From the NCBI GenBank assembly GCA_964016885.1, contig OZ024741.1:94674001-94738000 (forward strand): a stretch of DNA of 64,000 nucleotides. The letters run 5' to 3'. A program made the translations under genes and the position numbers. This document shows positions 1 to 57,235 of the stretch, in pieces (position 1 is the stretch's first letter; each line of letters starts with the position of its first letter). Under the pieces are notes generated by a model. The model did not search any database, had not been told where the DNA came from, and saw only the letters and a list, made by a program, of their open reading frames with translations. The stretch comes from Eledone cirrhosa (lineage: Eukaryota).

Positions 1-3000
1 ATGACAGTGATGGTGGGGGTGATGGAGGAAGTGGAGGTGGTGATGGCAGTGATGGTGGGGGTGATGGAGGTAGTGATGGTGGTGGTGATGGAGGAAGTGG
101 AGGTGCTGATGGCAGTGATGGTGGGGGTGATGACAGTGATGGTGGTGGTGATGGAGGAAGTGGAGGTGCTGATGGCAGTGATGGTGGGGGTGATGGAGGT
201 AGTGATGGTGATGACAGTGATGGTGGTGGTGATGGAGGAAGTGGAGGTGGTGATGGCAGTGATGGTGGGGGTGATGACAGTGATGGTGGTGGTGATGGAG
301 GAAGTGGAGGTGGTGATGACAGTGATGGTGGGGGTGATGACAGTGATGGTGGTGGTGATGGAGGAAGTGGAGGTGGTGATGGCAGTGATGGTGGGGGTGA
401 TGACAGTGATGGTGGTGGTGATGGAGGAAGTGGAGGTGGTGATGGCAGTGATGGTGGGGGTGATGGAGGTAGTGATGGTGGTGGTGATGGAGGAAGTGGA
501 GGTGGTGATGGCAGTGATGGTGGGGGTGATGGAGGTAGTGATGGTGGTGGTGATGGAGGAAGTGGAGGTGCTGATGGCAGTGATGGTGGGGGTGATGGAG
601 GTAGTGATGGTGGTGGTGATGGAGGAAGTGGAGGTGGTGATGACAGTGATGGTGCTGGTGATGGAGGAAGTGGAGGTGGTGATGGCAGTGATGGTGGGCG
701 TGATGGAGGTAGTGATGGTGGTGGTGATGGAGGAAGTGGAGGTGGTGATGACAGTGATGGTGCTGGTGATGGAGGAAGTGGAGGTGGTGATGGCAGTGAT
801 GGTGGGGGTGATGGAGGTAGTGATGGTGGTGGTGATGGAGGAAGTGGAGGTGGTGATGGCAGTGATGGTGGGGGTGATGGAGGTAGTGATGGTGGTGGTG
901 ATGGAGGAAGTGGAGGTGCTGATGGCAGTGATGGTGGGGGTGATGGAGGTAGTGATGGTGGTGGTGATGGAGGAAGTGGAGGTGGTGATGGCAGTGATGG
1001 TGGGGGTGATGACAGTGATGGTGGGGGTGATGGAGGTAGTGATGGTGATGGTGATGGAGGAAGTGGAGGTGGTGATGGCAGTGATGGTGGGGGTGATGGA
1101 GGTAGTGATGGTGGTGGTGATGGAGGAAGTGGAGATGGTGATGGCAGTGATGGTGGGGGTGATGACAGTGATGGTGGGGGTGATGGAGGTAGTGATGGTG
1201 GTGGTGATGGAGGAAGTGGAGGTGGTGATGGCAGTGATGGTGGGGGTGATGGAGGTAGTGATGGTGGTGGTGATGGAGGAAGTGGAGGTGGTGATGGCAG
1301 TGATGGTGGGGGTGATGGAGGTAGTGATGGAGGAAGTGGAGGTGGTGATGGCAGTGATGGTGGGAGTGATGGAGGAAGTGGAGGTGGTGATGGCAGTGAT
1401 GGTGGGGGTGATGACAGTGATGGTGGGGGTGATGGAGGAAGTGGAGGTGGTGATGGCAGTGATGGTGGGGGTGATGGAGGTAGTGATGGTGGTGGTGATG
1501 GAGGAAGTGGAGGTGCTGATGGCAGTGATGGTGGGGGTGATGGAGGTAGTGATGGTGGTGGTGATGGAGGAAGTGGAGGTGGTGATGGCAGTGATGGTGG
1601 GGGTGATGACAGTGATGGTGGGGGTGATGGAGGTAGTGATGGTGATGGTGATGGAGGAAGTGGAGGTGGTGATGGCAGTGATGGTGGGGGTGATGGAGGT
1701 AGTGATGGTGGTGGTGATGGAGGAAGTGGAGATGGTGATGGCAGTGATGGTGGGGGTGATGACAGTGATGGTGGGGGTGATGGAGGTAGTGATGGTGGTG
1801 GTGATGGAGGAAGTGGAGGTGGTGATGGCAGTGATGGTGGGGGTGATGGAGGTAGTGATGGTGGTGGTGATGGAGGAAGTGGAGGTGGTGATGGCAGTGA
1901 TGGTGGGGGTGATGACAGTGATGGTGGGGGTGATGGAGGAAGTGGAGGTGGTGATGGCAGTGATGGTGGGGGTGATGGAGGTAGTGATGGTGGTGGTGAT
2001 GGAGGAAGTGGAGGTGGTGATGGCAGTGATGGTGGGGGTGATGGAGGTAGTGATGGTGGTGGTGATGGAGGAATTGGAGGTGGTGATGGCAGTGATGGTG
2101 GGGGTGATGGAGGTAGTGATGGAGGAAGTGGAGGTGGTGATGGCAGTGATGGTGGGGGTGATGGAGGTAGTGATGGTGGTGGTGATGGAGGAAGTGGAGG
2201 TGGTGATGGCAGTGATGGTGGGGGTGATGGAGGTAGTGATGGAGGAAGTGGAGGTGGTGATGGCAGTGATGGTGGGGGTGATGGAGGAAGTGGAGGTGGT
2301 GATGGCAGTGATGGTGGGGGAGATGACAGTGATGGTGGTGGTGATGGAGGAAGTGGAGGTGCTGATGGCAGTGATGGTGGGGGTGATGGAGGTAGTGATG
2401 GTGATGGTGATGGAGGTGCTGATGGCAGTGATGGTGGGGGTGATGACAGTGATAGTGGTTGTGATGGGGGAAGTGGAGGTGGTGATGGCAGTGATGGTGG
2501 GGGTGATGGAGGTAGTGATGGTGGTGGTGATGGAGGAAGTGGAGGTGGTGATGGCAGTGATGGTGGGGGTGATGACAGTGATGGTGCTGGTGATGGAGGA
2601 AGTGGAGGTGGTGATGGCAGTGATGGTGGGGGTGATGACAGTGATGGTGGTGGTGGTGATGGAGGAAGTGGAGGTGGTGATGGCAGTGATGGTGGGGGTG
2701 ATGACAGTGATGGTGGTGGTGATGGAGGAAGTGGAGGTGGTGATGGCAGTGATGGTGGGGGTGATGACAGTGATGGTGGTGGTGATGGAGGAAGTGGAGG
2801 TGGTGATGGCAGTGATGGTTGGGGTGATGACAGTGATGGTGGTGGTGATGGAGGAAGTGGAGGTGGTGATGGCAGTGATGGTGGGGGTGATGACAGTGAT
2901 GGTGCTGGTGATGGAGGAAGTGGAGGTGGTGATGGCAGTGATGGTGGGGGTGATGGAGGTAGTGATGGTTATGGAGGAAGTGGAGGTGGTGATGGCAGTG

Positions 3001-6000
3001 ATGGTGGGGATGATGACAGTGATGGTGGGGGTGATGGAGGTAGTGATGGTGGTGGTGATGGAGGAAGTGGAGGTGGTGATGGCAGTGATGGTGGGGGTGA
3101 TGGAGGTAGTGATGGAGGAAGTGGAGGTGGTGATGGCAGTGATGGTGGGGGTGATGGAGGTAGTGATGGTGGTGGTGATGGAGGAAGTGGAGGTGGTGAT
3201 GGCAGTGATGGTGGGGGTGATGGAGGTAGTGATGGAGGAAGTGGAGGTGGTGATGGCAGTGATGGTGGGGGTGATGGAGGAAGTGGAGGTGGTGATGGCA
3301 GTGATGGTGGGGGAGATGACAGTGATGGTGGTGGTGATGGAGGAAGTGGAGGTGCTGATGGCAGTGATGGTGGGGGTGATGGAGGTAGTGATGGTGATGG
3401 TGATGGAGGTGCTGATGGCAGTGATGGTGGGGGTGATGACAGTGATAGTGGTTGTGATGGGGGAAGTGGAGGTGGTGATGGCAGTGATGGTGGGGGTGAT
3501 GGAGGTAGTGATGGTGGTGGTGATGGAGGAAGTGGAGGTGGTGATGGCAGTGATGGTGGGGGTGATGACAGTGATGGTGCTGGTGATGGAGGAAGTGGAG
3601 GTGGTGATGGCAGTGATGGTGGGGGTGATGACAGTGATGGTGGTGGTGGTGATGGAGGAAGTGGAGGTGGTGATGGCAGTGATGGTGGGGGTGATGACAG
3701 TGATGGTGGTGGTGATGGAGGAAGTGGAGGTGGTGATGGCAGTGATGGTGGGGGTGATGACAGTGATGGTGGTGGTGATGGAGGAAGTGGAGGTGGTGAT
3801 GGCAGTGATGGTTGGGGTGATGACAGTGATGGTGGTGGTGATGGAGGAAGTGGAGGTGGTGATGGCAGTGATGGTGGGGGTGATGACAGTGATGGTGCTG
3901 GTGATGGAGGAAGTGGAGGTGGTGATGGCAGTGATGGTGGGGGTGATGGAGGTAGTGATGGTGATGGAGGAAGTGGAGGTGGTGATGGCAGTGATGGTGG
4001 GGATGATGACAGTGATGGTGGGGGTGATGGAGGTAGTGATGGTGGTGGTGATGGAGGAAGTGGAGGTGGTGATGGCAGTGATGGTGGGGGTGATGACAGT
4101 GATGGTGCTGGTGATGGAGGACGTGATGGTGGTGATGGCAGTGATGGTGGGGGTGATGGACGTAGTGATGGTGGTGGTGATGGAGGAAGTGGAGGTGGTG
4201 ATGGCAGTGATGCTGGGGGTGATGGAGGTAGTGATGGTGGTGGTGATGGAGGAAGTGGAGGTGGTGATGGCAGTGATGGTGGGGTTGATGGAGGTAGTGA
4301 TGGTGGTGGTGATGGAGGAAGTGGAGGTGGTGATGGCAGTGATGGTGGGGGTGATGGAGGTAGTGATGGTGGTGGTGATGGAGGAAGTGGAGGTGGTGAT
4401 GGCAGTGATGGTGGGGGTGATGACAGTGATGGTGCTGGTGATGGAGGAAGTGGAGGTGGTGATGGCAGTGATGATGGGGGTGATGGAGGTAGTGATGGTG
4501 GTGGTGATGGAGGAAGTGATGGTGGTGGTGATGGAGGAAGTGGAGGTGGTAATGGCAGTGATGGTGGGGGTGATGACAGTGATGGTGGTGGTGATGGAGG
4601 AAGTGGAGGTGGTGATGGCAGTGATGGTGGGGGTGATGACAGTGATGGTGCTGGTGATGGAGGAAGTGGAGGTGGTGATGGCAGTGATGGTGGGGGTGAT
4701 GGAGGTAGTGATGGTGGTGGTGATGGAGGAAGTGGAGGTGGTGATGGCAGTGATGGTGGGGGTGATGACAGTGATGGTGCTGGTGATGGAGGAAGTGGAG
4801 GTGGTGATGGCAGTGATGATGGGGGTGATGGAGGTAGTGATGGTGGTGGTGATGGAGGAAGTGATGGTGGTGGTGATGGAGGAAGTGGAGGTGGTGATGG
4901 CAGTGATGGTGGGGGTGATGGAGGTAGTGATGGTGGTGGTGATGGAGGAAGTGGAGGTGGTGATGGCAGTGATGGTGGGGGTGATGACAGTGATGGTGGT
5001 GGTGATGGAGGAAGTGGAGGTGGTGATGGCAGTGATGGTGGGGGTGATGGAGGTAGTGATGGTGGTGGTGATGGAGGAAGTGGAGGTGGTGATGGCAGTG
5101 ATGGTGGGGGTGATGACAGTGATGGTGGTGGTGATGGAGGAAGTGGAGGTGGTGATGGCAGTGATGGTGGGGGTGTTGGAGGTAGTGATGGAGGAAGTGG
5201 AGGTGGTGATGGCAGTGATGGTGGGGGTGTTGGAGGTAGTGATGGAGGAAGTGGAGGTGGTGATGGCAGTGATGGTGGGGGTGATGGAGGTAGTGATGGT
5301 GGTGGTGATGGAGGAAGTGGAGGTGGTGATGGCAGTGATGGTGGGGGTGATGACAGTGATGGTGGTGGTGATGGAGGAAGTGGAGGTGGTGATGGCAGTG
5401 ATGGTGGGGGTGATGACAGTGATGGTGGTGGTGATGGAGGAAGTGGAGGTGGTGATGACAGTGATGGTGGTGGTGATGGAGGAAGTGGAGGTGGTGATGG
5501 CAGTGATGGTGGGGGTGATGGACGTAATGATGGTGGTGGTGATGGAGGAAGTGGAGGTGGTGATGGCAGTGATGGTGGGGGTGATGACAGTGATGGTGGT
5601 GGTGATGGAGGAAGTGGAGGTGGTGATGGCAGTGATGGTGGGGGTGATGGAGGTAGTGATGGTGGTGGTGATGGAGGAAGTGGAGGTGGTGATGGCAGTG
5701 ATGGTGGGGGTGATGGAGGTAGTGATGGTGGTGGTGATGGAGGAAGTGGAGATGGTGATGACAGTGATGATGGTGGTGATGGAGGAAGTGGAGGTGGTGA
5801 TGGCAGTGATGGTGGGGGTGATGGAGGAAGTGGAGGTGGTGATGGCAGTGATGGTGGGGTGATGACAGTGATGGTGGGGGTGATGGAGGAAGTGGAGGTG
5901 GTGATGGCAGTGATGGTGCTGGTGATGGAGGAAGTGGAGGTGGTGATGGCAGTGATGGTGGGGGTGATGGCAGTGATGGTGGGGGTGATGACAGTGATGA

Positions 6001-7300
6001 TGGTGGTGAATGAGGAAGTGGAGGTGGTGATGGCAGTGATGGTGGGGGTGATGGCAGTGATGGTGGGGGTGATGGAGGAAGTGGAGGTGGTGATGGCAGT
6101 GATGGTGGGGTGATGACAGTGATGGTGCTGGTGATGGAGGAAGTGGAGGTGGTGATGGCAGTGATGGTGGGGGTGATGACAGTGATGGTGCTGGTGATGG
6201 AGGAAGTGGAGGTGGTGATGGCAGTGATGGTGGGGGTGATGACAGTGATGGTGGTGGTGATGGAGGAAGTGGAGGTGGTGATGGCAGTGATGGTGGGGTG
6301 ATGGAGGTAGTGATGGTGGTGGTGATGGAGGAAGTGGAGGTGGTGATGGCAGTGATGGTAGCATGTATTGTTGAAGGTGGTGATGGTAGTGATGGTGGGG
6401 GTAGTGGATGTGGTGGTGACAGTGGTAGTGGTGGTGATGACAGTGATGGTATGGTGATGGAGGTAGTGGAGGTGGTGATGGCAGTGATGGTGGGGGTAGT
6501 GGATGTGGTGATGACAGTGATGGTGGGGGTAGTGGATGTGGTGATGACAGTGGTAGTGGTGGTGGTGATGATGACATTGATGGTATGGTGATGGAGGTAG
6601 TGGAGGTGGTGATGATGATGACTGTGATGGTATGGTGATGGAGGTAGTGGAGGTGGTGATAGCAGTGATAGTGGTGGTGGTGGTGGTGGTGGTGATGTTG
6701 GTGGAGGTAGTGGCTGTGGAGATGACAGTGATGGTGGAGGAAGTGGAGGTGGTGATGACAGTGGTGGTGGGGGTCATGACAGTGATGGTGGTGGTGATGG
6801 AGAAAGTGGAGGTGGTGATGACAATGGTGGTGGGGTGATGACAGTGATGGTGCTGGTGATGGAGGAAGTGGAGGTGATGATGACAGTGGTGGTAGCATGT
6901 ATTGTTGAAGGTGGTGCTGGTGATGGTTTTGAGGTTTGTGGAGGTGCTGGTGCTGGTAGTGGTTGTGGTGGTGGTGGTGATGTTTGTGGAGGTATATGTG
7001 GTGATGCTGGCGCTAGTGGTTTTGATGTTGGTGGTGATATATGTGGTGGTGGTAGTGGTGAAGGTTTTGTTGTTGGTACAGATGGTGATGGTGGTGGTGG
7101 TAGTGATGGTTTTGTTGTTAATAGAGATATATATGATGGTGGTGATGGTGGTAGTGATGGTTTTATGTGGTGGTGATGATGGTTTTGTTAGTGGTGGAGG
7201 TATATATAGGTAGTTCTGATGCTGATGCTGATGGTTTTGCTGTTGGTAGAGATATTTGTGATACTGCTGGTGATGGTGGAGAAATAGATGTTGACGGTAC
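1..7300. repeat. GTG/ATG/GAG triplet-based compound minisatellite (42-bp core ATGGAGGAAGTGGAGGTGGTGATGGCAGTGATGGTGGGGGTG plus variable modules), degenerating after about 6350; runs off the left edge
   Basis: Seen directly: tandem modules whose lengths are multiples of 3. The long M/V/E-rich (+) and Pro-rich (-) ORFs are by-products of the repeat. Confidence 0.95.
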
Positions 7301-7867
7301 TGTTTTAGTTGGTATTTTCTTATTGTTGCTTGTTTTTGTTTAACCCTTGGTAAACTATGAATAACCAAATCTAGTCCAACTGTGACCATCATGTCCTTTC
7401 CTACATTTAGCCCTCCAATGTCCAATGTGTCCTTTTTTAAAAAGGAAAGGTATGATCTGAATAGATCTGGTTGCTATGGTAATATTTCCATTGTTGATGG
7501 TAATGGTGATGTTGTTGTTGGTGGTAGTGGTGGTATTCGTCATTGTGGTGAGGGTGGTGGTAGTGATGGTATGATACAGTGGGAGGTGGAGAAAGTCAGA
7601 GACTATAAATAGTGTGTGTGGGGGTGGGTAGCAGTTACAGAAATAAGGTAACAGAGAAGGGGGACAAAGTAAGGAGAAAAAAATAATGAAAGTAGGGGAT
7701 GAGATAGATAAAGTGAGGGGGGGGGGGGTGAGAAGGGAGACATACTGAAAAGATGGCAGAGAGAAGGAGAAAGCTGGAGAGAGTGAAGAGAAGTAGTAAA
7801 ACAGTGATGAGAATGAAAGAGTAAGAAAGAGAGAGAGTGAGAGAAAGAGAACTATGAGGGGAGAAGG

Positions 7868-9095
7868 GTGTGATGTAATGTGATGTAGAATGGTGTGGTG
7901 TGGTGTCATGTGATGTGGTGTGGTGTAATGTGGTGTGTGGTGTGATGTGGTGTGTGGTGTGATGTGTTGTGGTGTGGTGCAATGTGTAATGTGGTGTAGT
8001 GTAGTATGGTGTAATGTGGTGTAGTGTGATGTGATGTGATGTAGTGTGGTGTGGTATTGTGTGGTGTGGTGTGGTATCGTGTGGTGTGGTGTGGTGTAGT
8101 GTGATGTGGTGTAATGTGGTGTGGTGTGGTGTGGTGTAGTGTGATGTGGTGTGGTGTAATGTGGTGTGGTGTAGTGTAGTGTGATGTGGTATAGTGTGAT
8201 GTGGTGTCTGGTGTGATTTAATGTGATGTGGTGCAATGTGTAATGTGGTGTAGTGTAGTATGGTGTAGTGTGATGTGGTGTGGTGTAGTGTGGTGTAGTG
8301 TGATGTGGTGTAGTGTAATGTGGTGTAGTGTGATGTGGTGTAGTGTGAGTAGTGTAGTGTGATGTGGTGTAGTGTAGTGTGGTGTAGTGTGATGTGGTGT
8401 CGTGTAATGCGGTGTAGTGTAATATGGTGTAATGTGGTGTGATGTAATGTGGTGTAGTGTAATGTGGTGTGGTATGGTGAAATATGACGTAATGTGGTGT
8501 GTTGTAATGTAATACAGTGTAATGTAATGTATGCGATGTGGTGTGGTGTAATAGGATGATGTGGGGTGCTGTGCAACGTTGTGCAATGTGGAGTAATGTG
8601 ATATAATGTGGTGTCATGTGATATAATGTAGTGTCATGAATGTGATATCATGTAGTGGTGTTGTGTGGTATGATGTGATGTGATGTAATGTAATATGGTT
8701 TGATGTAGTGTGGTGTAATGAAATGTAATGATGTATAGTGTGATATGATGTGATGCAGTGTAGTGTAATGTGATATGTGTGTGGTGTAATGAAATATGAT
8801 GTAATGCAGTATGGTGTGATGTGATGCAGTGTGGTGTAATGTAATGAGGTGTAATATAATGTTGCATCATGTGTTGTGATATGATATAATGTGGTGTAAT
8901 GTGATGTAGTGTAACACATTGCATGTAATGTGGTGTTGTATTTTGTGATGCAATGTTGCGTAATGTAGCATGGTGTAATGTGATGTGTTTTGGTGTGATG
9001 TGATGCCATATGATGTGATGTAATGTAACTGATGTAATGTGATGTCCTATGGTGTGGGGTTATGTGATGTTGCATAGTGTGATGTAATGTGATAT
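7868..9095. repeat. Pentamer-type satellite (GTGTG/GTGTA/ATGTG/ATGTA variants)
   Basis: Seen directly; produces the spurious H/T/Y-rich ORFs on the minus strand. Confidence 0.9.
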
Positions 9096-13869: not shown

Positions 13870-14975
13870 CACTTAGATTGTATCATACTGACAGACAGGC
13901 AAGTACAAAGCTGGTAATAGACCATGGCCAGTTGTGATGTGCAGGCCTCCTTTAAATTTGTAACAGGCCCAGACCAGATGTAAAATATTCATGTTGATGA
14001 TATAATTAGCAACAACGGTATTTGACCATATTTGTTTTTTCTCAGAATCTATACAACTCTTGCTTTCCTTGTGCATCACATGACCATACCAGCACAATTA
14101 TCTCTCTTGCAAGCTACATTCAATTCCCCGTATGCTCAGCTGTTTTCACAGCCCACTTGTGCTCTGCTATTCCCATACACTAACATTACACATCCAGCAA
14201 AGACTGCATGCTTCATTTCTTTTAAACTGCTGCAGATCTCCTATACTTGTGTCTTTCTGCCAAGCAGCATAGTAGTTCAAACACAAGCATCATACAATCT
14301 ACCCTTCACTGTTGCCAGCAGAGGTAAAAACTACCTAAACCTTTGCCACTTTGTTCTCACTCTAGCTACAACCACCTTCATTGCTAATGAAGTCCCCTAG
14401 ATAGCAAAAGTTATTCACTTCTAGTGCGCCTTCTAAACATTTAAAAGAGTTCATTTCCTGAGTATCTTTACTGTTGATTACTTCTGTGCACTTGTCAAAT
14501 ATTACATTGTCCTTCTCTGTCGGCTTAGCTGTGACCCTGCTACATCTCATGCATCCACTGCCATACTGGATACACTGTATGGAGTTTCTACCTATCTCTT
14601 TTTGACATATTGAGTATGACCATTTACCTGACAGAATCAGAGTCCTATCCTCTTTCCTACTTACTAAAACTTTAGTCTCTACTTGGTTTACTTTGATTCC
14701 AAATTTTGTTTCCATGCCTGGAATTTCTGCTCTAGTTCTTTTACAGTTTCTGCTATGCAGGCTAGATCATCAGTATACAGGCTTTCCCATGAACATCCAA
14801 TTTTTAATTCCTCTGTTATGACCAAGAGAACTAATGAACTAATAACAGGAGAGACTAAGAATTGTTCCTGATATCAGCACACAAATTGCTGTACTCATTG
14901 TTAATCCTCACTTTGCTGACTGCACCCCTGTACATGATTTGTACAGTTCTCAAAAGCTATTCATCTATCCCTTGC
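13870..14975 (-). pseudogene. Degraded RTE-clade LINE ORF2 fragment (RT, PHD-like insert, C-terminal part)
   Basis: Peptides ETKVLV...GKWSYSICQKEIGRNSIQCIQ, FCYLGD and WYGHVM; frameshifted. Boundaries approximate. Confidence 0.8.
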
Positions 14976-15697: not shown

Positions 15698-17011
15698 CGA
15701 GGGGGGATCAAAAGGTTTGCGGAATTTTATCATAGCAAGAAAAATATCAGGTTAAAACAATATTAAACATGTCAGAACATTGTCACTGGGTGTTTACCTT
15801 GCTATTAGTCACTTGCAATCAGTTATGCGCGGACTATTGTACAGTACTGACACTCTTTAAAAAACCTCTTTTTGGAACAATGGAAAATAGTTATTTTGAG
15901 ATAAGATCGAATATCAAGTTTCTGGTGAAACTCAAATGGAAAGGGACACAGATTATGGAGGCTTTAGTTAAAGTTTACGGTACTACTGCTCCAAAGAAAA
16001 CTGCTGTCTACAAATGGATTCAGCAATTCAAACAAGGGAGAGACGACCTTGAAGACGACCATCGCAGTGGAAGACCAGGAACATCAAAAAATGACCAAAA
16101 CGTTGAGGCTGCTCAGACTTTAATTGAAGAAGATCGAAGAATAACAGTTAATCAGTTAGCTAAGCCCCTAGACATTTCATATGGTTCGGCAAATTCAATT
16201 CTGCACGATAATTTTGGACTAAGCAAGCTTTCAGCGCGATGGGCCCCAAAAGCGTTGCGTCCTGATCAGCTGATTCTTCGAAGTGATCTGTCTTTGGCGA
16301 TATTAAACAAAATTGAAGTTGATGAAGAGCATTTCCTGACCAGAATAATCACCGGAGATGAAACCCGGATCTACCAGTATGATCCTGAATCCAAACAGCA
16401 GTCAAAACAGTGGCTTCCACGTGGATCATCGGGGACAATCAAGTTTAAATCTCAAAAGTCAGATCAAAAAGTGATGGCCACCATTTTCTGGGATTCAGAT
16501 GGGGTGATACTAATAGATTATTTTGAAGGTCAAAGAACTGTGACAGGAACTTACTATGCAAATGTTTTAAGGAAGCTGAAAGGGGCATTAGTCAAGAAAC
16601 GAAAAGAGAAACTTCATGGTGGGATCTTGTTTCACCATGACAATGCACCAGCGCATTCTGCGCGGGTTGCAAAAGAAGTTCTTCGAGAATTTCGATGGGA
16701 AGTGCTTCCTCACCCGCCTTATAGTCCAGATTTAGCCCCATCAGACTTTTTCCTCTTTCCAAAACTCAAAGAAATGCTAAAAGGAACCCGTTTTAGTGGT
16801 GTTGAAGAAGCTAAAAACACTACCAACACATGGCTTCAAACAAGGCCTTCAACTTTCTTTAGAGACGACTTACGAAGCTGTAAGCATCACCTTGTGAAGT
16901 GTATTGACCTGGATGGCAACTATGTAGAAAAATAAATTGAAGGTAAATCATATTTTTTGAAAAATAGATTATTTTCTGAAAAATTCCGCGAACTTTTTGA
17001 TCCCCTCCTCG
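15698..17011 (+). mobile_element. Full-length mariner DNA transposon (DD34D, irritans/Hsmar2-like), 1314 bp
   Basis: TA TSD at 15696-97 and 17012-13. About 31-bp TIRs, CGAGGGGGGATCAAAAGGTTTGCGGAATTTT versus CGAGGAGGGGATCAAAAAGTTCGCGGAATTTT (1 indel, 2 mismatches). Confidence 0.95.
15880..16935 (+). CDS. Mariner transposase, 351 aa from the likely start MENSYF
   Basis: Uninterrupted ORF with an HTH region, WAPKAL (WVPHEL-like), TGDET, HHDNA and YSPDLAPSD; 34 residues between the 2nd and 3rd catalytic D. Confidence 0.9.
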   Translation: MENSYFEIRSNIKFLVKLKWKGTQIMEALVKVYGTTAPKKTAVYKWIQQFKQGRDDLEDDHRSGRPGTSKNDQNVEAAQTLIEEDRRITVNQLAKPLDISYGSANSILHDNFGLSKLSARWAPKALRPDQLILRSDLSLAILNKIEVDEEHFLTRIITGDETRIYQYDPESKQQSKQWLPRGSSGTIKFKSQKSDQKVMATIFWDSDGVILIDYFEGQRTVTGTYYANVLRKLKGALVKKRKEKLHGGILFHHDNAPAHSARVAKEVLREFRWEVLPHPPYSPDLAPSDFFLFPKLKEMLKGTRFSGVEEAKNTTNTWLQTRPSTFFRDDLRSCKHHLVKCIDLDGNYVEK

Positions 17012-19322: not shown

Positions 19323-20883
19323 CAACCACATTTATAGTGTGGACTGGGTACTTTTTGTCATGACTCCTACACAACCACATTTACAGTGTGGGCTGGGTAC
19401 TTTTTGTCATGACTCCTACACAACCACATTTACAGTGTGGACTGGGTACTTTTTGTCATGACTCCTACACAACCACATTTACAGTGTGGACTGGGTACTT
19501 TTTGTCATGACTCCTACACAACCACATTTATAGTGTGGGCTGGGTACTTTTTGTCATGACTCCTACACAACCACATTTACAGTGTGGACTGGGTACTTTT
19601 TGTCATGACTCCTACACAACCACATTTACAGTGTGGACTGGGTACTTTTTGTCATGACTCCTACACAACCACATTTACAGTGTGGGCTAGGTGCTTTTTG
19701 TCGTGACTCCTACACAACCACATTTATAGTGTGGGCTGGGTACTTTTTGTCATGACTCCTACACAACCACATTTATAGTGTGGACTGGGTACTTTTTGTC
19801 ATGACTCCTACACAACCACATTTATAGTGTGGGCTGGGTACTTTTGTCATGACTCCTACACAACCACATTTATAGTGTGGACTGGGTACTTTTTGTCATG
19901 ACTCCTACACAACCACATTTACAGTGTGGGCTGGGTACTTTTTGTCATGACTCCTACACAACCACATTTACAGTATGGGCTAGGTGCTTTTTGTCATGAC
20001 TCCTACATAACCACATTTACAGTGTGGGCTGGGTACTTTTTGTCATGACTCCTACACAACCACATTTACAGTATGGGCTAGGTGCTTTTTGTCATGACTC
20101 CTACACAACCACATTTACAGTGTGGGCTGGGTACTTTTTGTCATGACTCCTACACAACCACATTTACAGTATGGGCTAGGTGCTTTTTGTCATGACTCCT
20201 ACACAACCACATTTACAGTGTGGGCTGGGTACTTTTTGTCATGAATCCTACACAACCACTTTACAGTGTGGACTGGGTACTTTTTGTCGTGACTCCTACA
20301 CAACCACATTTACAGTGTGGGCTAGGTGCTTTTTGTCGTGACTCCTACACAACCACATTTACAGTGTGGACTGGGTACTTTTTGTCGTGACTCCTACACA
20401 ACCACTTTACAGTGTGGGCTGGGTGCTTTTTGTCGTGACTCCTACACAACCACTTTACAGTGTGGGCTGGGTGCTTTTTGTCGTGACTCCTACACAACCA
20501 CTTTACAGTGTGGGCTGGGTGCTTTTTGTCGTGACACCTACACAACCACTTTACATTGTAGGCTGGGTGCTTTTTATCATGACTCCTACACAACCACTTT
20601 ACAGTGTGGACTGGGTGCTTTTTGTTGTGACACCTACACAACCACTTTACAGTGTGGGCTGGGTGCTTTTTGTCGTGATTCCTACACAACCACTTTACAG
20701 AGTGGGCTGGGTGCTTTTTATCATGACTCCTACACAACCACTTTATAGTGTGGGCTGGGTACTTTTTGTTGTGACACCTACACAACCACTTTACAGTGTG
20801 GGCTGGGTGCTTTTTTTCGTGACACCTACACAACCACTTTACAGTGTGGGCTGGGTGCTTTTTGTCGTGACACCTACACAACC
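19323..20883. repeat. 49/48-bp tandem minisatellite (about 32 units) expanded inside an RTE 3' UTR
   Basis: Unit ACAACCAC(A)TTTACAGTGTGGGCTGGGT(A/G)CTTTTTGTC(A/G)TGACTCCTAC with no spacers; followed at about 20884-20985 by the reverse-complement end of RTE ORF2. Confidence 0.93.
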
Positions 20884-21539
20884 AGCCTGTCCTCAAGAAA
20901 GATGTATGGGAGGGGGTGCAGGCTATATATGTATGTATGTTTCAGCTTCAGCCCATGGGAAGGCAGGTCTTCTGTATTACTGCAACATAATATAAACACA
21001 TATTTTTCTATATGTAAAATATTAAACTTACATATTTGCTTAATTGCATATAAAAGACACATATATTTATATATGTGTATTTATCTACAATAGCCATATG
21101 CAATACATACACATGTATAGATAAGCAATATATCCTATAGGTATACATGAATTGCAATAAATTAAACTCATGCCACAATCTTCAGGGAATTGTGCCGGAG
21201 TAAACAGTGGTAAACATGATAAGAGAGAAATTTTGTAATATACAAAACCTGTCAACATTGAAGAGTGGATAAACTTTCTAACATCTGTTTACTGCACTGG
21301 ACTTCATTGGTGGATATCTTGATGGAATTTGTACTATATTGGGCTAACTTAGTTTCATCATAATAAACCTCCAGCTCATGTAAACAGAATAAGTCAGCAT
21401 ACATGCATAAATGTGTATATGTGTATATGTGTATGTATGCATATGTATGTGTGTGTATGTATGTATATATGTATGTATGTATATATGTAGGAAATGGTAT
21501 CTTGATGGAATATGTGCTAGCTATATTTGGCTAGTATCG

Positions 21540-24789: not shown

Positions 24790-26230
24790 TCATAGTCTTA
24801 TATCTTGGTGATGGGGGGACGAAGAAGCAGGTGTGTGTGCGAAAGAAAAAGACGGGAGCGTTTGTGGCTCAGGTGCGATAGCATCTGTATCCAAATGTGC
24901 TCGTTTGAGTCTATCAATCGAAACCGTCTCTCTGGAACCCTTAATGTCTACAGTGAAATATTTCTCTGAACGAGCTAATACACAGTAGGGTCCAGAGTAC
25001 GGTTGTGTGAGAGGTGGTTTCACGGCATCGTTTCTCACAGACACATGGGTCCACGAGGCAATATCCCTTGGGACTGCAAATTGTACAGTTTGCTTCCTCG
25101 TATCCATCGGCGGCAGGTCCTGAAAATAAGAACGCAGATGGGATACATAGGAAAGCGGATCTTGTTTAGCAAGATCGACAGGGGGAAGCATTTGCCCAGG
25201 TAACGCTAGAGAAGCACCATATAACAATTCGGCCAGGGAGAACCCAAGTTCCTCCTTTATTGTTGAACGAATCCCCAACAACACAATAGGGAGGTACTCG
25301 CTCCAGCGCGTAGAGTCAGGAGAAGTCCGTAGAGCAGCTTTCAGTTGTCGGTGGAAGCGCTCCACCATTCCATTAGAGGCAGGATGATATGCAGTAGTTC
25401 GGATGCGTTTAGCGCCGATGATCTTCGTCAATTGATGGAAGAGATTCGACTCAAACTGCCTTCCACGGTCCATGGTAATTGACGTTGGCACTCCATATCG
25501 AGCGATCCATCCAGACACAAGGGCACGCGCTGTCGTCTCAGCAGTGATATCTTTCAAGGGGATGGCTTCAGGCCATCGCGAAAAACAATCGATTACCGTC
25601 AATAAGTAATTGTAACCACCACTGATGGGTCAAGGTCCCACGATGTCCACATGAATGTGGCGAAACCAGGCGTCCGGGTTACTAAAAGTACCAAGAGGAG
25701 TCTTAATATGTCTATGAACTTTCGATTTCTGGCAAGCAACACAGGAACGGCACCAAACAGTAATTTCACGTCTCATATTTGGCCAGAAGAATCTAGCCGT
25801 TATGAGTTTTACTGTGGCAGAAGATCCTGGATGTGAAATGCCACGCAAAACAAGAAACACAGTTCGACGATGGTTCAACGGAACAAAAGGGCATGGCGTA
25901 TCCAGAGACGTCGCAGAGGATCCATCCATCTGCGGTCGGTAATGGTAGGTATTTCATCCTGCAATTCACAAATTCTGTCGATGTAACATCCAACGATTCG
26001 AGGGTAGGCTGATCGGCTGCCAAGCGATTCAAATCTATGTCATCGGACGACGAGATTGAAGTAATCGGTAAATGAGACAGGGCGTCGGCCGCTGTATTCA
26101 TAGAACCCGGAATATGTTGAAAATCATTTGTAAACTGATAGATGAGGTCGAGATATCTAGTTTCTCTAGGCGAGTATTTGTCTGCCTTTGCCTGCAAGGT
26201 GAATGTCAACGGCTTGTGGTCCGTAAGCAT
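24790..26230 (-). pseudogene. Gypsy pol fragment: RNase H end, integrase Zn-binding region and DDE core; disrupted
   Basis: TDHKPL, SHPG...[36 protein letters not shown] and [12 protein letters not shown]; frameshift near 25900 and stop at 25630. Confidence 0.93.
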
Positions 26231-26647
26231 TTTAAGGCCATTTTCCCTGCTAAAGGTGTTAGCCTTGCAGACCACATGACAGTTTTCTTCATTTTGACCT
26301 ACCCTCTGTATTTCTCTCTTACCAGTAGACCCTTGACTTTCATTTCTTATTTATCTGTCTTTCGTGGTCTTCTTTTTCATCTACTTCCTTCCACAGTCAC
26401 TAATCAACTATTATAGGACCATCTTATAACAAAGATAAAAATGATGATCAATAAAATATGTATTGTTAAAGAAAGATGTAGCATACATGATCAAGATTGT
26501 GGTGGACTAGATTATGTACTGAATATAGTTCAGTAGTTCCTTGTTCCAAATTCAAATCCTTTCACACATCATTCAGAGCATTTTGTACGGTTTTTATAGA
26601 ACAATCTAAAAATTGAAATCAGTGTTATACAAAATCAGAACACTTAC

Positions 26648-33404: not shown

Positions 33405-34605
33405 GCTCTTAGAAAACTAGGAGTTGATGAGTGGCTTGTAAAGGCTGTACAAGCCATGTATAGGGGAGCAGTCAGCAACGTTAGGATTAACAATGGCTAT
33501 AGTGAGGAATTTAGCGTACAGGTGGGCATCCACCAGGGCTCTGTTCTTAGCCCTCTCCTGTTTATTATCGTATTGCAGGCTATAACAAGAGGAGTTTAAG
33601 ACTGGCTGCCCATGGGAACTCCTGTATATGGATGATCTTACATTCATAGCGAAATTTATGGTGGAACTAGAGAAGAAATTCCAAACATGAGGTCTTAGTC
33701 TCAACCTGACAAAGACTAAGGTCCTAATAAATAAAAGAGAAAACAGAACCCTGATCCCCTCAGGGAAATGGCTTTGCTCAGGATGTAGGAAAGGTGTAGG
33801 TAGAAATTCCATCATCTGCCCCAAATGCAAACTATGGGTACACAAGAAATGTAGTGGGATCTTAGGAAGTTTAGCTAAGAACATAGGTTTTATATATAGC
33901 AGTTGCACCAGAGCAGTAAGCAACAAATAATCACAGGAAATAAGAGCTATCAAATTCCTGGAAGGCTTGGTAGAAGCAGTAGACAGCTTCTGCTACCCAG
34001 GTGACCAAATTAGCAACAGAGATGGGTGTTCTGAAGGTACAGTAGCCAGAGTAAGAACGGAATGGAACAAATCCAGGGAGCTACAACCACTGCTAGCTAC
34101 AAAAAGGTTTTCCCTCAAAATGAAAGAGACTGTATGATGTGTGCATACGACCAGCAATGTTGCATGGTAGTGAGACCTGGGCACTGTGTGCAGAAAACTA
34201 GTGTAGATCGGAAAGAAATGAAGCTTACATGCTCTGATGGATGTGTAATAGTAATTATATAGTATGTTCCACTCCTACCTCCACCCTTCTATACATCTCC
34301 CATTAAGACAGGCTGAAGCATACATCTAGTGAAGCCTCCAGTTCACACTGTAAAGAGGTTGTGATGGTGACACAACAAAAGCACCCAGCCCACACTGTAA
34401 AGTGGTTATGTAGGTGTCACGACAAAAAGCACCCAGTATTCACTGCAAATGTGGTAGGCAATAGGAAAGGCATCCAGCTGTAGAAACCAAGCCCAAATCA
34501 GTTCTGTATGAGGAAGACATGGTCACCTGATCTGGCATTTCTCACAACAGGACAACTCATCTAATCCATACTAGCATGGAAAAATGGACATTAAATGGTG
34601 ATGAT
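33405..34605 (+). mobile_element. RTE LINE fragment with RT core, PHD-like insert, 3' UTR and tail; disrupted
   Basis: GIHQGSVLSPLLF, LLYMDDL, NLTKTKVLI, GKWLCSGCRKGVGRNSIICPKCKLWVHKKC, VDSFCYPG; the 3' UTR carries 48-bp units. Confidence 0.88.
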
Positions 34606-41670: not shown

Positions 41671-42785
41671 CTGGAGAACAACAACAACAATATCAGAATT
41701 ATTCTAGGCTTTTAACTGAACTTTTATCGTTCAATCAACAATTAAAGAAAAAAGATTCAATGCTGATGTTATACATTTGTGGAACATACTGTAGTAGTGA
41801 TAGTAACTTCTATCATTTTATTTTGTTAACCTCAGAGAGAGAAAGGAGTAGTGTACATGACCCTTTACATGACCTCAAAAATTGGAGTGAGGGAGGGAGA
41901 AGGTGAGTGGAGAGAGAAAGGAAGAGAGAATGTGGTAGGGGGAGAAAGGGGAGGAGAGAAGGGGAGAGGAGTGGAGAGAAGGGAGTGATGGGGGAGACAG
42001 AGGGAGAAGTGGAGAGGTAGCTGACACTTGCCCAAGATTCTGTGCACTGAGATTGAACATAAACTTAGATACTTGTGAAATCCCCATCATAATGACAGCT
42101 CTTTTAGTTCCCTGGTATAATACACAAGGGTACAGTGTACCTATTCAAAAACCAAGATACTCATAATACAACCATAAACTAAATTGAATCTATGAAAGAA
42201 TTATACAAACAAACCAAACAAGAAACGACTTTTAACATCCTGTAATGATTTAGTAGAAAACATTAAAAAACTGGCTTGTTAATTCAAATGTTTATAGTAT
42301 TCTTATTGGTAGACAGATCACTGAAAATTTACAGTAATAGAATTTCTTTTCCATACGCTGATGTGTATGTATATATGTGTGTGCATATGCATACATTTAT
42401 ATGTATGAGTATATAAATATGAACGTGCAAATACAGACACTTACAAAAATACACACTCACAGACATACACAAACATACATTCACACAAACACACATTTAC
42501 ACAAACACACACACACACTCACACAGCGTAGTTTTTTCATCATCAACTTCCTTTCTTTTATACACACATTAACGCAAGCAATAGACATAAAGAGAGAGGA
42601 GTGGTATGAGGTAGTCAAACTACTCTCTCTTTATGTGTTGTATCAGAATCACAGAAATTTATATATCGATTAAAGTAAAGAGTATAATTTTTAATGTGAT
42701 GCAGTCATAGTGCTGTTTGATATTTTTCAAGAATGTTTTACTTGTGTGGTTTCATGTGGTACAGAACATTAAGAGTTAAACTCAC

Positions 42786-43238
42786 CTGCTTCCTGACTTG
42801 GACCATTGACTTATAAGGAAGCCTGTAACCAGTTGTCATGGAAACTGGCCAGCCTATCTGTTCAGATTTTGGAGATAACATAGTCTTGTATTTGACAATG
42901 ACATGAGGAAGTATCTTGTCTTCTTCATCTCTGTTGTCAACATCTGGCAAAGCAAGGATGCTGAGTTTCATGTCATTTGTGAGAAGGATGATTTCGTTGG
43001 TGCCATCACTGTCAAGGTCAGTCACAATGGGTGATGGTAAGGCTTCGTTTTCTGTAGGGTATTTCCCATTAGCATAAAGGTGGGTGTCAGCCCTCTTTCT
43101 CCACATTGGTTGCAGGCTGTAGACATCATCAGCACGGAAGAGATAAACAATGAGAAATAGAAGGACAATAACAGAAACGTGGTTGGCTGAAATACTTTCA
43201 GCTTTTACCTTTAGTTTCTCCACAATTTCAAAAGTCAT
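42786..43238 (-). CDS. NERD1-like gene coding exon 1 (MTFEIVEK...VQVRKQ; N-terminal hydrophobic segment and first FG-GAP-like DLDSDG motif)
   Basis: ATG at 43238, preceded by a polypyrimidine tract, an AG acceptor and 5 nt (exon starts at 43243). Donor CAG|GTGAG at 42785. 453 nt, phase 0. Confidence 0.9.
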
Positions 43239-44039
43239 GGTTCCTAAAGAGAGAGACAAAAAAAAAAAAAAACTCTTAAACGGATTACTGATACTCAGTA
43301 AACATGATTTAACATTAACAACAAAAGTGATACTTCTTTTAAAGGATATATTTCTTATACTATAGGGGCATGCTGGTGACACAACAAATGCACCCAGTCC
43401 ACCCTGTCATGTGGTCATGTTGGTGACATGACGAAAAGTATCCATCCACCCTGTTAGGTGGTCATTCTGGTAACATGACAAAAAACACCCAGACCAACCT
43501 GTAAAGTGTTGTTGACACAAAAAAAAGTGCCAAGTCAACCCTATAAGATGGTCATTTCAGTACCACTATGAAAAGCACCCAGTCCACACTGTAACATGGT
43601 TAGTGTTAGGAAGGGCATCCAGCCATATGAATGTTTATTATAGATATACATAATGCCTATATCAACCCCTATTATGAACCCTGCTATATTAGTGCTACTG
43701 CTAATCAATGGTTCCTATATAGAGAGAGAAGCACTATCAAGAGATGCTCAACAAAACTAATACTCGTTTAGCAAAAAAAACATTTAAATTCTAGTAAATT
43801 CATCATCATCACCTTTTAATACCTATTTTCCATGCTAGCATGGGTTAGACGAGTTGTCTCATGAAACAAGTCAGATCAGGTGACCATGTCTTGCTCATAC
43901 AGAACTGCTTCTGGCTTAGTTTCTATGGCTGGATGCCCATCCTAATGCTAACCTAATGCCACTTTACAAAGTGGACTTGGTGCTTTTTGTTGTGTCACCA
44001 ACACAAGACATCATCATCATTTTTACGTCTGTTTTCCAT

Positions 44040-45097
44040 GCTTGCATGGTTTGGACAGGTGTGTCTTTTGTCGTCATCTTTGTGAAGTTTAATATTTTGA
44101 GATCAGCTTTTACCCTTGCTGCCCATGTCTTTCCTTGGCCTTCAACTTGGCACTCCTACACAGATTTACTCATGTATGTCATCTTTCAAACACATTGCAT
44201 GTCCACATCAATGCAGTCTTCTCTCTTGTATGCAACATCCAATTCTTCTTAGACCCAGTTTTTCTCTCAACTCATTTGTGCTTCATTATTCATGTACACT
44301 GATGTTACACATCCAGCAAAGCATGCTCGTTTCCTTTCTTTCCAACTTTCATACATCTAATGCCTTCAATACAACATTACATAAGTGTCAAGACACACCA
44401 GTGAAAATAAGCAGTTACTCAGGAAGACTGAAGAAGACCTAGTCAGAAGTAGAGGCAGCTGATCTGAAAGTGATGAACCTCATAGAGGAGATGACAAAGG
44501 AACACAAATGGAGGTAAACTGTACTAGAAAAGACCAATCAAACCCATGCAACTATGGAAAAGCAAATGTAAAATTATGACAATAGTGACACAAGCTTCAT
44601 GCAGCTTTTCTTTTGTCCTGACAAAGGGTTGTTACAAGCAGAGGTAAAAGCTTCATAAACTTCTTATTTTAGATACTATGCCTTCAGAGCACCCTCTCCA
44701 CTGCTGGTTATGTCATCCAGGTAACAGAAGCTATTAACTGCCTCAATTGAGCCTTCTGAACATTAGAAAGATGTTAATTTACTGGTGTCATGACTGCTGA
44801 TAACACCTGTGCATCTACCACACACAAACAGTCTACCTTTTCTGTTAGCCTGCCTGCAATTCCACTATGTCTTTTACACCCATATTTTTTATTGAGTACA
44901 CCGAATTGAATTTCTACCTACACTTTTCTACATATTGAGCACAATCATTTCTTTGATAGTAACTTTGGCCTTTGCTATGTTTACTCTAAGTCCTTTTGAT
45001 TTTAGATTTTGTTTCCACATCTGAAATGTCTTCTCTAGATCTTGTAAAGATTCAGCAGTAAGAACTAGACCATCAACTTACAGGAGTTTCCACAGAT
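44040..45097 (-). pseudogene. Scrambled old RTE fragments (mostly minus strand; a short plus-strand piece at about 44400-44580)
   Basis: Recognisable WMC, WKLL..DGL and PHD-like CRKSVGRNS remnants. Confidence 0.65.
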
Positions 45098-51192: not shown

Positions 51193-51289
51193 ATATATAT
51201 CGTCATCATCATCATCATAGAGAGTCTGGTTTTGGAAACAGAACTGAAAGTCAAAAGGAATTAAAATAAATGTTAGAAGAATGAAAGTT

Positions 51290-51730
51290 TTGGGAAGTAG
51301 GAAGAAAGACAGATCCCACCAGGAAAGTGGCCTTGCTTAATATGTAGAAAAGGAGTAGGTAGAAACTCTGTATGATGTACACAATATAAATCTTGGGTAC
51401 ACAAGAGGTGTAGTGGGAAAGCAGGCAGACTAACAGAAGAGATAAACATTATATGTGGCAAATGCACTAGGTTAGTTGGTAGTAAGAGCATCAGTGAAAT
51501 AAACATTTTTCCAATCCCAGAAAGGTTCTATAGAAATAGTGATAGCTTCTGCTACAGAGTTGATATAAATAGTGGTGGTTGAACTAAAAGCATAACAGCC
51601 CCGAAAAGTACAGAATGGAATAATTTCAGAATGCCACTACATCTGTTGACAACACAAGGTTTCTCTCAATGAAAGGCCAGCTCTATGTTGCCTGTGAAAT
51701 CTGATGTTGCATGGCAATGAATGCAGAGGA
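51290..51730 (+). pseudogene. Degraded RTE fragment including the PHD-like insert
   Basis: GKWPCLICRKGVGRNSV*CTQYKSWVHKRCSG...ICGKC. Confidence 0.75.
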
Positions 51731-54946: not shown

Positions 54947-55421
54947 TATTATATTCCATGTACCCCCAGCATTTTTCCTTAGAACCTAACTAATAATTGT
55001 TCGTAGAAACCACTGCATATTCGCAGAATCTTAAATATCTTCCGCAATTTTTTTAATGGCTTTTTTCGGGGCAATATATATTTTTTAACGCTTAATTATT
55101 AATAACAATATTTGCCAGTCTTAATTATTAATAACCGTATTTGCCGGTCTTAATTATTAATAACCATATTTGCCAGTCTTTTGGGCGTCCTCTCTATTTT
55201 TATTATATTTTACTTTATATTTTGATGTTTATAGGCACTTTTATGGACCACGTTCAATATTCGCAGTTTTTCACTGTTCGTGGATGCAAATACTGGGGAA
55301 CAACTGTATATATATATTTATTAAAATAACAGATTAAAGTTTAAGCAAAGAATCGCTGCTTTCACCCTTATCAAGCCCTCTTTGGATTTTAGTCTTCAAA
55401 TTTATTATTATTACTATATAT

Positions 55422-55498
<77 letters not shown>

Positions 55499-55499
<1 letters not shown>

Positions 55500-56395
55500 G
55501 GCCTTGCTCAGTATGTAGGAAAGGTGTAGGTAGGAACTCCATTCTCTGCCCCAAATGCAAACAATGGGTACACAAGAGATGTAGCGGGATCTCAGGAAGC
55601 TTAATTAAGAATGTAGGATTCACATGCAGCAGCTGTGCTGAAACAGCAAGCAGCAAACAGCCACAGGAAACAAGTACCACCAATCTCTGGGAGGGCCCTG
55701 TAGAAACAGTAGACAGCTTCTGCTACCTAGGTGACCGAATTAGCAACGGAGGTGGGTGTTCAGAAAGTACAATAACTAGGGTAAGAATGGGATGGAAGAA
55801 GTTTAGGGAACTACTACCACTGCTAGCTGCAAAATCTTCTCCCTCAGAATGAAAGGCAGACTGTATGATGCGTGTATCCGAACAGCGATGTTGCATGGTA
55901 GTGAGACCTGGGCGCTGAAGGTGGAAGACTTACGTAGATTAGAGAGAAACAAAGCCTGCATGCTCCGATGGATGTGTAACAGTAATATACGTGAACGACA
56001 AAGCATAAATGAATTGAGAGAGAGACTGAGCATAAGAGGAATCAAATGCTGTGTGCAGGAGAGGCGGTTGCGCTGGTATGGACATGTGATGCGTATGAAG
56101 GATGACAGCTGCATAAAAAGGTGCAGAGCACTAGAAGTTGATGGAAACCGCGGAGTGGGGAGACCCAAGATGACCTGGGATGAGGTGATAAAAGCCGACC
56201 TTACCCAACTACACCTCTCAAAGACAATGACACACGACCGTGACTTCTGGCGTCACGCAATAATACAGAGTACCCGACCTCCCATGGGTACATGCTGAAG
56301 CATATAAACAATATGCCCCCACACCCCCCACCGCAAGGTGGTCGTGGAGGTGCCACGGCAAAAAAGCACCCAGCCCACACTGTAAAGTGGACGTG
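55499..56395 (+). mobile_element. Young 5'-truncated RTE LINE: intact PHD finger, RT thumb and ORF2 C-terminus (one frameshift near 55833), 3' UTR
   Basis: WPCSVCRKGVGRNSILCPKCKQWVHKRCSGISGSLIKNVGFTCSSC...VDSFCYLG, then ORF 55849..56298. Confidence 0.9.
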
Positions 56396-57235
56396 TATAT
56401 ATATATCTTTGCACATATTTTTCTCTTCGTTAATTTTCAAATTCTTTTAATTTATACATTATCTTCCAACGGTTTTCAACCTCTCTATGTAAAACAATAT
56501 ATCTTTCTCAGTTATAAAAACTATCTCTCTCTCTCTATCACCCATCTCTCCTCCTATCTCATCCTTCCTCACTATACTCCTCCCTCTCCACCTTCACTCT
56601 CATCTCCTTCTTTTTTTCATCCTTTCCACCCCCCACCCCCCTCTAAATAAAATATTTTTCCCAATATCACACATCAATCTAAAACTACTTCTCATATGTT
56701 GATTTAAAACTGAACTATCCACAAGTGTTTTTTAACCTTCATATCATGTCCTGTTTTATCTGATGAAAACACAAATATTATTGCATGATGATATTTGTTT
56801 TTGAAATGCACATAATAAAATACATGGAACTCCTTTAACCATCTTTTGTTCTTATATATTATATATATATATATATATATCAGTAAGTAAACAAGTGTTT
56901 ATAAAAAAAAGTTTGTGTGCTATAGGAAGAGATGTGTTCTGAAATTTCAAGCAGGACACTTTTTCTTTTCCTAGTAGAGAAACATATTTTCCTTTTTGAA
57001 TTTTATTATTTAGGAAAGGAAACATATTTATATTTCATCCACTTTGAGAAGACTCTTCAGCTGTGTCAAAAACATGACAACCTTCTTAATGTGATAAAAT
57101 TGATAGAATGTAGGGATGCATGTAGGCAAGAGGCAGGGCCCCCAGCCCATCTGAGTGGTTAGTAGTTCTATTTGAGTATTGACTTGTTCTGTGACAACCC
57201 ATCCAATCCTTGTTGGCAGGAAAAATGGGTATTTG

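Follow-up and report, generated by a model that had tools for sequence, protein, structure and literature searches.

A PHD finger within the reverse transcriptase of an RTE-type LINE from Eledone cirrhosa

LINEs of the RTE clade are defined by a single open reading frame (ORF) in which an APE endonuclease precedes a reverse transcriptase (RT). Like the element described here, RTE-2_OV of Octopus vulgaris is an octopus RTE with an endonuclease, an RT and a zinc finger in one ORF, but its description sets it apart: the protein has 1,109 amino acids, the UTRs are about 600 nt, and the finger is called C2H2, with PHD unmentioned in the part of the paper available (PMC9115989). The O. bimaculoides RTE of the same paper could belong to the PHD-containing RTE family (PHD-RTE) studied here. 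CR1/L2 LINEs encode PHD fingers of a Pygopus-like subtype, whose top matches (2vpb_A and 3zpv) are also found for our finger; those PHDs lie in ORF1 or at the N-terminus, whereas this one lies inside the RT palm of an RTE (PMC4120745).

Also inserted between RT motifs 6 and 7 is the 6a loop of R2 elements, a short base-reading loop, in contrast to the 46-residue zinc domain of this APE-type element. In R2Bm the loop (residues 672–677) reads the upstream part of the target DNA, nicking fails when it is deleted, and the authors who described it think it unique to R2 among non-LTR RTs (PMC10499050); the 6a loop of vertebrate R2 also wedges into upstream DNA (PMC12180492). BAZ1A, BRPF2-PHD2 and the piggyBac CRD resemble our finger in having a basic surface and in having lost the histone-binding acids (PMC5636791, PMC5861402), and the last of these is a case of a transposon using a PHD-like cross-brace fold on DNA (PMC5861402). 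None of the three is inside a polymerase, however, and BAZ1A lacks the aromatic cage that is partly kept here.

The element and its zinc finger

We analysed 64,000 nucleotides of E. cirrhosa contig OZ024741.1 (positions 94,674,001 to 94,738,000; the window), in which a sequence-only reading had described an RTE LINE with a C4HC3 PHD pattern at 55505–55636. Translation bears out both pattern and coordinates: frame +1 from 55499 reads W-P-C-x2-C-x10-C-x2-C-x4-H-x2-C-x14-C-x2-C, with C1 starting at 55505 and C8 ending at 55636, and the Trp before His and aromatic residue before C7 that had been reported are a Trp two residues before the His and a Phe two residues before C7. The copy itself (Table 1) is a dead fragment: a single-base frameshift interrupts it near 55835, and both the (GAT)n tail and the final ~200 bases of the 3′ UTR are gone. 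The finding is about the family rather than this copy.

It had also been claimed that the finger lies between the KTK and F.YLG motifs and that the copy at 33405 fixes this position. That copy does carry YMDD, KTKVL, the PHD and FCYPG in order (we take FCYLG to be RT motif 7), and the placement stands for it and for the family, but not for the flagged copy, which has no KTK motif because it is 5′-truncated one base before the first PHD codon. The family norm is YADD rather than YMDD: of the 101 rows with a residue in that column, 98 have Ala. As the same reading had it, the finger or a remnant of it is present in five copies of the window: all eight zinc ligands are kept at 55499, seven at 33769, seven (with a stop) at 51328 and four at about 14620 on the minus strand, and the finger at about 44940, also minus, is frameshifted.

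Table 1. Features of the flagged copy and of the other RTE copies in the window
Feature	Position	Strand	Basis or remark
Young RTE LINE copy, 5′-truncated	55498..56397	+	Matches intact copy L036 at 98% identity; covers 2484-3385 of the ~3,590 element positions
(TA)n microsatellite at 5′ junction of flagged copy	55416..55497	.	Sequence, copy alignment
C4HC3 PHD finger, ORF residues 775-820, 8/8 zinc ligands intact	55499..55636	+	Translation, Pfam, sequence, predicted fold
Variable linker after PHD, then short hairpin to RT motif 7	55637..55717	+	Residues 821-841: column identity 0.36, dN/dS 0.54
RT motif 7 (FCYLG; presumed numbering)	55718..55732	+	Translation, alignment
Thumb and C-terminal helical part of ORF, frameshift-broken in flagged copy	55733..56298	+	Translation, RT model
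Older-subfamily copy, 81% identical; motif 5, motif 6, PHD (33769-33906), motif 7 in order	33405..34255	+	
Decayed copy, PHD remnant from 51328	51230..51666	+	
Decayed copy, PHD remnant near 14490-14622	14050..14971	-	
Decayed, frameshifted copy, PHD remnant near 44800-44941	44063..45092	-	

The 3.0-Gb genome holds 70,735 first-look candidates of this LINE, and all 150 that were scored are 97–100% identical to the query. Among 14 genomic copies selected for long open frames, three (L034, L035 and L036) have the full 1,040-aa ORF, and in the latter two the domains are an APE endonuclease (32–266), RVT_1 (557–761) and PHD (777–820). The element is ~3.6 kb long. Its leader is ~160 nt and its 3′ UTR ~300 nt, and it ends, like RTE-clade LINEs, in a short-repeat tail, here (GAT)n, which was matched in 76 of the 84 copies examined. 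It has a single ORF, with the APE endonuclease followed by the RT, and no ORF1; a single-protein RTE has been reported elsewhere (PMC13708176). The element is a young, very high-copy, single-ORF RTE-type LINE.

Several further observations concern the element and the window. The RTE element appears to seed minisatellites: a 49-bp minisatellite of 32 copies (19323–20884) matches the repeated unit of its 3′ UTR and adjoins an older copy on the minus strand. The 3′ junctions of five copies (L009, L019, L020, L023 and L079) lie near (ATC)n runs or near another copy's tail on the reverse strand, which suggests tail-to-tail insertion through repeat microhomology. The window also contains a broken LTR-retrotransposon remnant with an integrase core (24790–26350, minus strand; rve 46 bits) and, at 1–8650, long strand-skewed tandem arrays, GTGATG-type and then GTGTAAT-type, with a GC skew of ~0.9. 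An exon-like open frame at 42738–43406 (minus strand) has a hydrophobic stretch and a D-x-D-x-D-G motif and no Pfam match; it may be a host-gene exon, in which case much of the window would be intronic.

The PHD identity proposed for the finger is confirmed by profile, by sequence against solved structures and by predicted fold. Pfam PF00628 scores 30.9 bits on the window piece (cut-off 24, E 2.7e-7) and 25.1–28.1 bits on six of six longer proteins, above the same cut-off. A PHD-containing query retrieved 131 proteins at E < 1e-10 among 171 candidates; 120 of these as listed, together with L036, form an alignment of 121 rows, and 114 of the rows keep all eight ligands, the Cys/His conservation for which a check had been proposed. 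The finger modelled alone (pLDDT 80) has Pygopus as its best Foldseek match (TMq 0.71, E 0.013); every row shown is PHD-containing, although none reaches E 0.001. With VIA, the top 20 rows are PHD proteins (best Z 6.5, rmsd 2.7, 54 aligned), led by BPTF, MLL4-PHD6 and Pygo (Z 6.5–5.9). As modelled, the finger scores and folds as a PHD, which places it in the PHD cross-brace fold class. A chance pattern, contamination and a single-copy accident were considered as sources of the finger and rejected on the Pfam score, the genome copies and the homologues.

In the full-text literature we found no description of a PHD inside a LINE RT, and the available parts of PMC11203168, PMC13708176, PMC3905857 and PMC3747384 make no mention of one. 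RVT_1 together with PHD is already listed for many homologues in automated Pfam tables, and Repbase, Dfam and subscription journals were outside the search, so a curated note may exist. PF27108 is a precomputed domain in 11 homologues, perhaps too few members for a family built for the PHD insert.

Position in the RT and distribution among relatives

The AlphaFold2 model of residues 480–1040 (pLDDT 88.7; PHD blocks 81–92) has an RT that is intact around the insert. L1 ORF2p and R2 rank first in Foldseek searches with this model, and VIA aligns it with R2Tg (Z 24.4, rmsd 3.6, 466 aligned) and R2Bm (Z 23.0, rmsd 3.5, 450 aligned). The phmmer match to R2Bm pairs query 506–760 with chain 408–666; beyond it the RTE linker begins at 761, and the PHD follows from 773–775. 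As the match ends where query 760 meets chain 666, the 6a loop would correspond to the linker into the PHD, and the finger would sit at the R2 6a site, an assignment that rests on sequence anchors and motif order rather than on superposition. By analogy with 6a, the finger may also point at upstream DNA. A residue-level alignment of a PHD-less relative with R2 or L1 across motifs 6–7 was sought and returned only two unrelated matches.

Since a PHD-containing query biases the sample, the RT core alone was searched against 1.84 billion representatives and the best 150 matches were classified. Fourteen have a complete PHD between motifs 6 and 7, with a spacing of 86–95 residues in 13 (the fourteenth is measured from an earlier motif match). 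The 81 with a short linker, 24–33 residues in 80 of them, are mostly near-copies of one fish family; no motif 7 was found in 23 of the 150 and no motif 6 in 32. The linker had been said to be short in other elements, and it is so in the PHD-less RTE relatives.

An RT-only tree of 85 rows, made by a quick search from 156 rows thinned at 85% identity, places all 66 PHD rows and five short-linker rows in one clade (SH-aLRT 95). PHD presence requires three changes on this tree against 17.3 in shuffles, with none of 500 as low, and the branch leading to the outgroup (11 rows) has a support of 100 once three long branches are removed (82 rows left). The finger is thus clade-wide, and the suggestion that it is a family trait holds well beyond the window. 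One PHD gain and up to two losses fit this sequence tree, whose root was not inferred. We infer that the ancestor of the clade gained the finger once, possibly from an ORF1 PHD of CR1/L2 type, a donor that the shared Pygopus top matches suggest but do not show.

The PHD clade is sister to fish and plant elements, in a tree without named Repbase references; the outgroups include proteins of the catfish Hemibagrus guttatus (P0169) and the plant Orobanche minor (P0164), a branch that we take to be RTE/Rex3. This PHD-less branch shares the single ORF with APE and RT, the short-repeat tail and 42–45% RT identity, but has 24–33 residues between motifs 6 and 7 where the PHD-RTEs have 86–95. A close named homologue of our element (P0003) is from Octopus vulgaris. 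The best homologue, P0001, is labelled as a Herbaspirillum MAG and is probably animal DNA in a bacterial bin, and contamination could account for one PHD row, whose source is a nematode assembly contig of 2 kb. A PHD-less group (P0142, P0150, P0154 and P0259) lies inside or at the base of the PHD clade; it includes a full-length PHD-less ORF of 987 aa (P0150) and provides a natural control for the function of the finger.

Conservation, pocket and charge of the finger

Residues 773–809 have a column identity of 0.76, compared with 0.73 for RT residues 620–760, in rows found with the PHD-containing query, and the non-ligand positions K782, V784, N787, S788, W797 and K800 are conserved as tightly as the RT core. 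Comparison of the old with the young subfamily puts dN/dS at 0.15 in the PHD (26 copies) and at 0.07 in the RT; the linker after the PHD reaches 0.54. These values are rough, in that the copies are not independent and synonymous sites are near saturation; dN/dS among young copies was discarded because these had been picked by identity to the PHD query. The finger is under purifying selection. That it is a tolerated passenger, kept folded only for RT stability, is very unlikely: a surface loop that tolerates insertions (R2 6a) and the five short-linker rows inside the clade would suit this, but the non-ligand positions are as conserved as the RT core, the 17 PHDs matched in the RT-only search are all net positive and keep the W before H, and deletion would restore the ancestral loop, yet the tree has at most two losses.

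The histone-binding pocket of Pygo (PMC2726290) was mapped onto the finger through alignment to Pygo2, with the numbering of Pygo1; the histone-binding residues of the two are called identical (PMC2927781). Five of the seven pocket positions are kept or conservatively replaced: the Y341 site (residue 775) is aromatic in 114 of the 121 rows, the V350 site (V784) is Val in all of them, the A356 site (S788) is Ser in 119, the I357 site (789) is I, V or L in 121 and the W366 site (W797) is Trp in 118. The invariant Trp divider and the aromatic/hydrophobic cage of H3K4me2/3-reading PHDs are present. The two acids are absent; D352 falls in a two-residue alignment gap, and the E360 site, the acid after C3, is acidic in only two rows of the 121. 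In Pygo the H3 face is acidic and mutation of E360 abolishes binding (PMC2726290). RAG2, however, reads K4me3 without an acid in its Arg2 pocket (PMC3241642), so the missing acid lowers, rather than removes, the chance of H3K4me2/3 reading. Residues 771–776 read D/K-S-G-K-aromatic-P and include no acidic cluster before C1 of the kind found in H3K4me0 readers (BHC80/AIRE type), so reading of unmodified K4 is unlikely.

Unlike the H3 face of Pygo, the finger is net positive. Over the 121 rows, residues 773–820 have a median net charge of +7 (range +4 to +13) and C1–C6 a median of +5 (range +2 to +8), against −3 for Pygo2 as counted in the alignment. Lys or Arg is conserved at residues 774 (102 of 121 rows), 781 (99), 782 (111), 800 (112) and 801 (110). 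On these alignments, the hydrophobic half of a methyl-lysine pocket appears to survive in electrostatic surroundings that would oppose the basic H3 tail. A complex prediction for the PHD and the unmodified H3 tail (30 aa) of the same genome, with the alignment unused, scored 0.00 and is no evidence either way.

Insertion sites and possible functions

The sequence-only reading had further proposed that a chromatin-reading module could steer insertion. To describe where copies land, we examined 84 copies for TA runs (six or more TA in 20 bases), dropping duplicates, unmatched tails and junctions outside the locus. Of 73 tails, 25 are followed by a TA run, and of 69 5′ junctions, 26 are preceded by one. 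The background is 9.1% of positions in 200 kb; unrelated (GAT)3+ runs have one after them in 4 of 39 cases (p 0.006), and copies of a young CR1 family in 3 of 28 (p 0.024). The excess is weak (p 0.044) when the reference is positions that come after AT, of which 24.8% qualify, a figure that the TA runs themselves inflate. This bias is a sequence-level preference, and cutting at TA has been reported for other RTEs such as Bov-B (PMC13295347).

CpG observed/expected (o/e) ratios were measured on repeat-masked 5-kb flanks in small samples taken by hand from top matches. With 18 of 20 tiles usable, the RTE has a median of 0.41; CR1 (19 of 20 usable) has 0.34, a mariner (20 of 20) has 0.45, and arbitrary tiles (34 of 40) have 0.72. 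RTE flanks stand apart from the random tiles (p 0.0004), but not from those of mariner (p 0.23) or CR1 (p 0.44). Values below 0.5 occur in 13 of 20 mariner versus 14 of 18 RTE flanks (p 0.23 by rank test, 0.48 by counts); a first pass with shorter flanks had the same outcome. Among the random tiles, 7 of the 12 with o/e < 0.6 contain RTE pieces, against none of the 22 with higher values. The CpG-poor placement of RTE copies is real. The young CR1-like LINE (L258:2377-3702, L152:1-2808) has a 945-aa ORF2 and an (ATT)n tail, and its ORF1, to which no Pfam family matches, carries a PHD-like pattern in which Cys replaces the His; mariner is therefore the only clean PHD-less control. It is represented in the window by a transposase with an open frame of 399 codons (15736–16935, plus strand) and in the genome by 4,686 first-look candidates, and is older than the RTE family. 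Since PHD-less mariner lies in the same CpG-poor DNA, the placement does not show PHD steering, and we rejected it as a sign thereof.

What the finger binds we infer from its fold class, position, conservation and charge. Our preferred reading, held tentatively at a rough probability of 0.45, is a basic grip with little sequence preference on upstream target DNA. From the motif 6–7 site the finger would face this DNA, its basic surface would grip it, with K774, R781, K782, K800 and R/K801 as the putative contacts to the phosphate backbone, and the grip would keep the RT steady at the nick while target-primed reverse transcription proceeds. The choice of site would come from the endonuclease and the tail rather than from the finger, and the retained Trp/aromatic half-pocket may add a methyl-lysine contact, which the site choice seen (TA runs and a short-repeat tail) does not need. 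The putative 6a-equivalent position, the RT intact around the insert, the positive charge, the missing Pygo acids and the low dN/dS argue for a DNA grip; against it, RT proteins are basic in many places, and the orientation toward DNA is deduced from two sequence anchors and motif order. Precedents for DNA binding by PHD or cross-brace domains are BAZ1A (PMC5636791) and the piggyBac CRD, BRPF2 and PHF6 (PMC5861402). On the other side, a near-invariant pocket is the pattern of methyl-K4 readers (PMC3241642), the DNA-binding BAZ1A lacks an aromatic cage, and a basic pair alone does not confer DNA binding (PMC5636791). With a PHD-less group and its full-length P0150 ORF in the same clade, the finger may also be dispensable.

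The pocket and the charge would be accommodated together by a bivalent nucleosome reader in a LINE polymerase, a reading with a real but minor chance of being right. A methyl-lysine half-cage (W775, V784 and W797) would then be ringed by basic residues gripping nucleosomal DNA, with the RT priming on a chromatinised target.

A histone reader proper, recognizing H3K4me or another methyl-lysine, would tether the RNP to marked chromatin and steer insertion; this too we regard as unlikely. The steering claim finds no support here, as mariner shares the placement, the TA bias is at the level of sequence and the finger is basic without the Pygo acids, which ill suits an H3 tail that is itself basic; the residues before C1 speak against the reading of unmodified K4 in particular. 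Since the hydrophobic pocket positions are nearly invariant, histone reading as such keeps some probability. The five retained Pygo positions favour it, the nearest solved PHDs by sequence or fold are mostly methyl-K4 readers (Pygo, PHF13, MLL1-PHD3 and BPTF), the CpG-poor flanks and the confinement of RTE pieces to CpG-poor random tiles would fit it, and general genome targeting has been proposed for LINE ORF1 PHDs (PMC4120745).

A binding partner in the element's RNA (3′ UTR or template), or in a non-histone host protein that RNP assembly or second-strand repair requires, is less likely still. A basic surface with exposed aromatics also suits RNA, the PHF6 PHD binds dsDNA or RNA (PMC5861402), PHD fingers bind non-histone partners (PMC3241642) and the element has no ORF1 for such jobs; however, the equivalent R2 loop touches target DNA, and single-ORF PHD-less relatives manage without a finger.

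The PHD-RTE departs from the report of a DNA-reading motif 6–7 loop in R2 only (PMC10499050) and from the description of LINE ORF2 as highly constrained (PMC4120745). It gives a direct test of the function of LINE-borne PHDs, for which there was no functional study as of 2014 in the available text of PMC4120745. If the bivalent reader were true, this would be the first case of a histone mark being read by the RT palm of a LINE as it inserts. A whole PHD fixed in the motif 6–7 loop across a large RTE subclade would make this site a reusable docking port facing the target, and, as RTEs are under development as gene writers (PMC13708176), a natural insertion site for a targeting domain in the RT may be of practical use.
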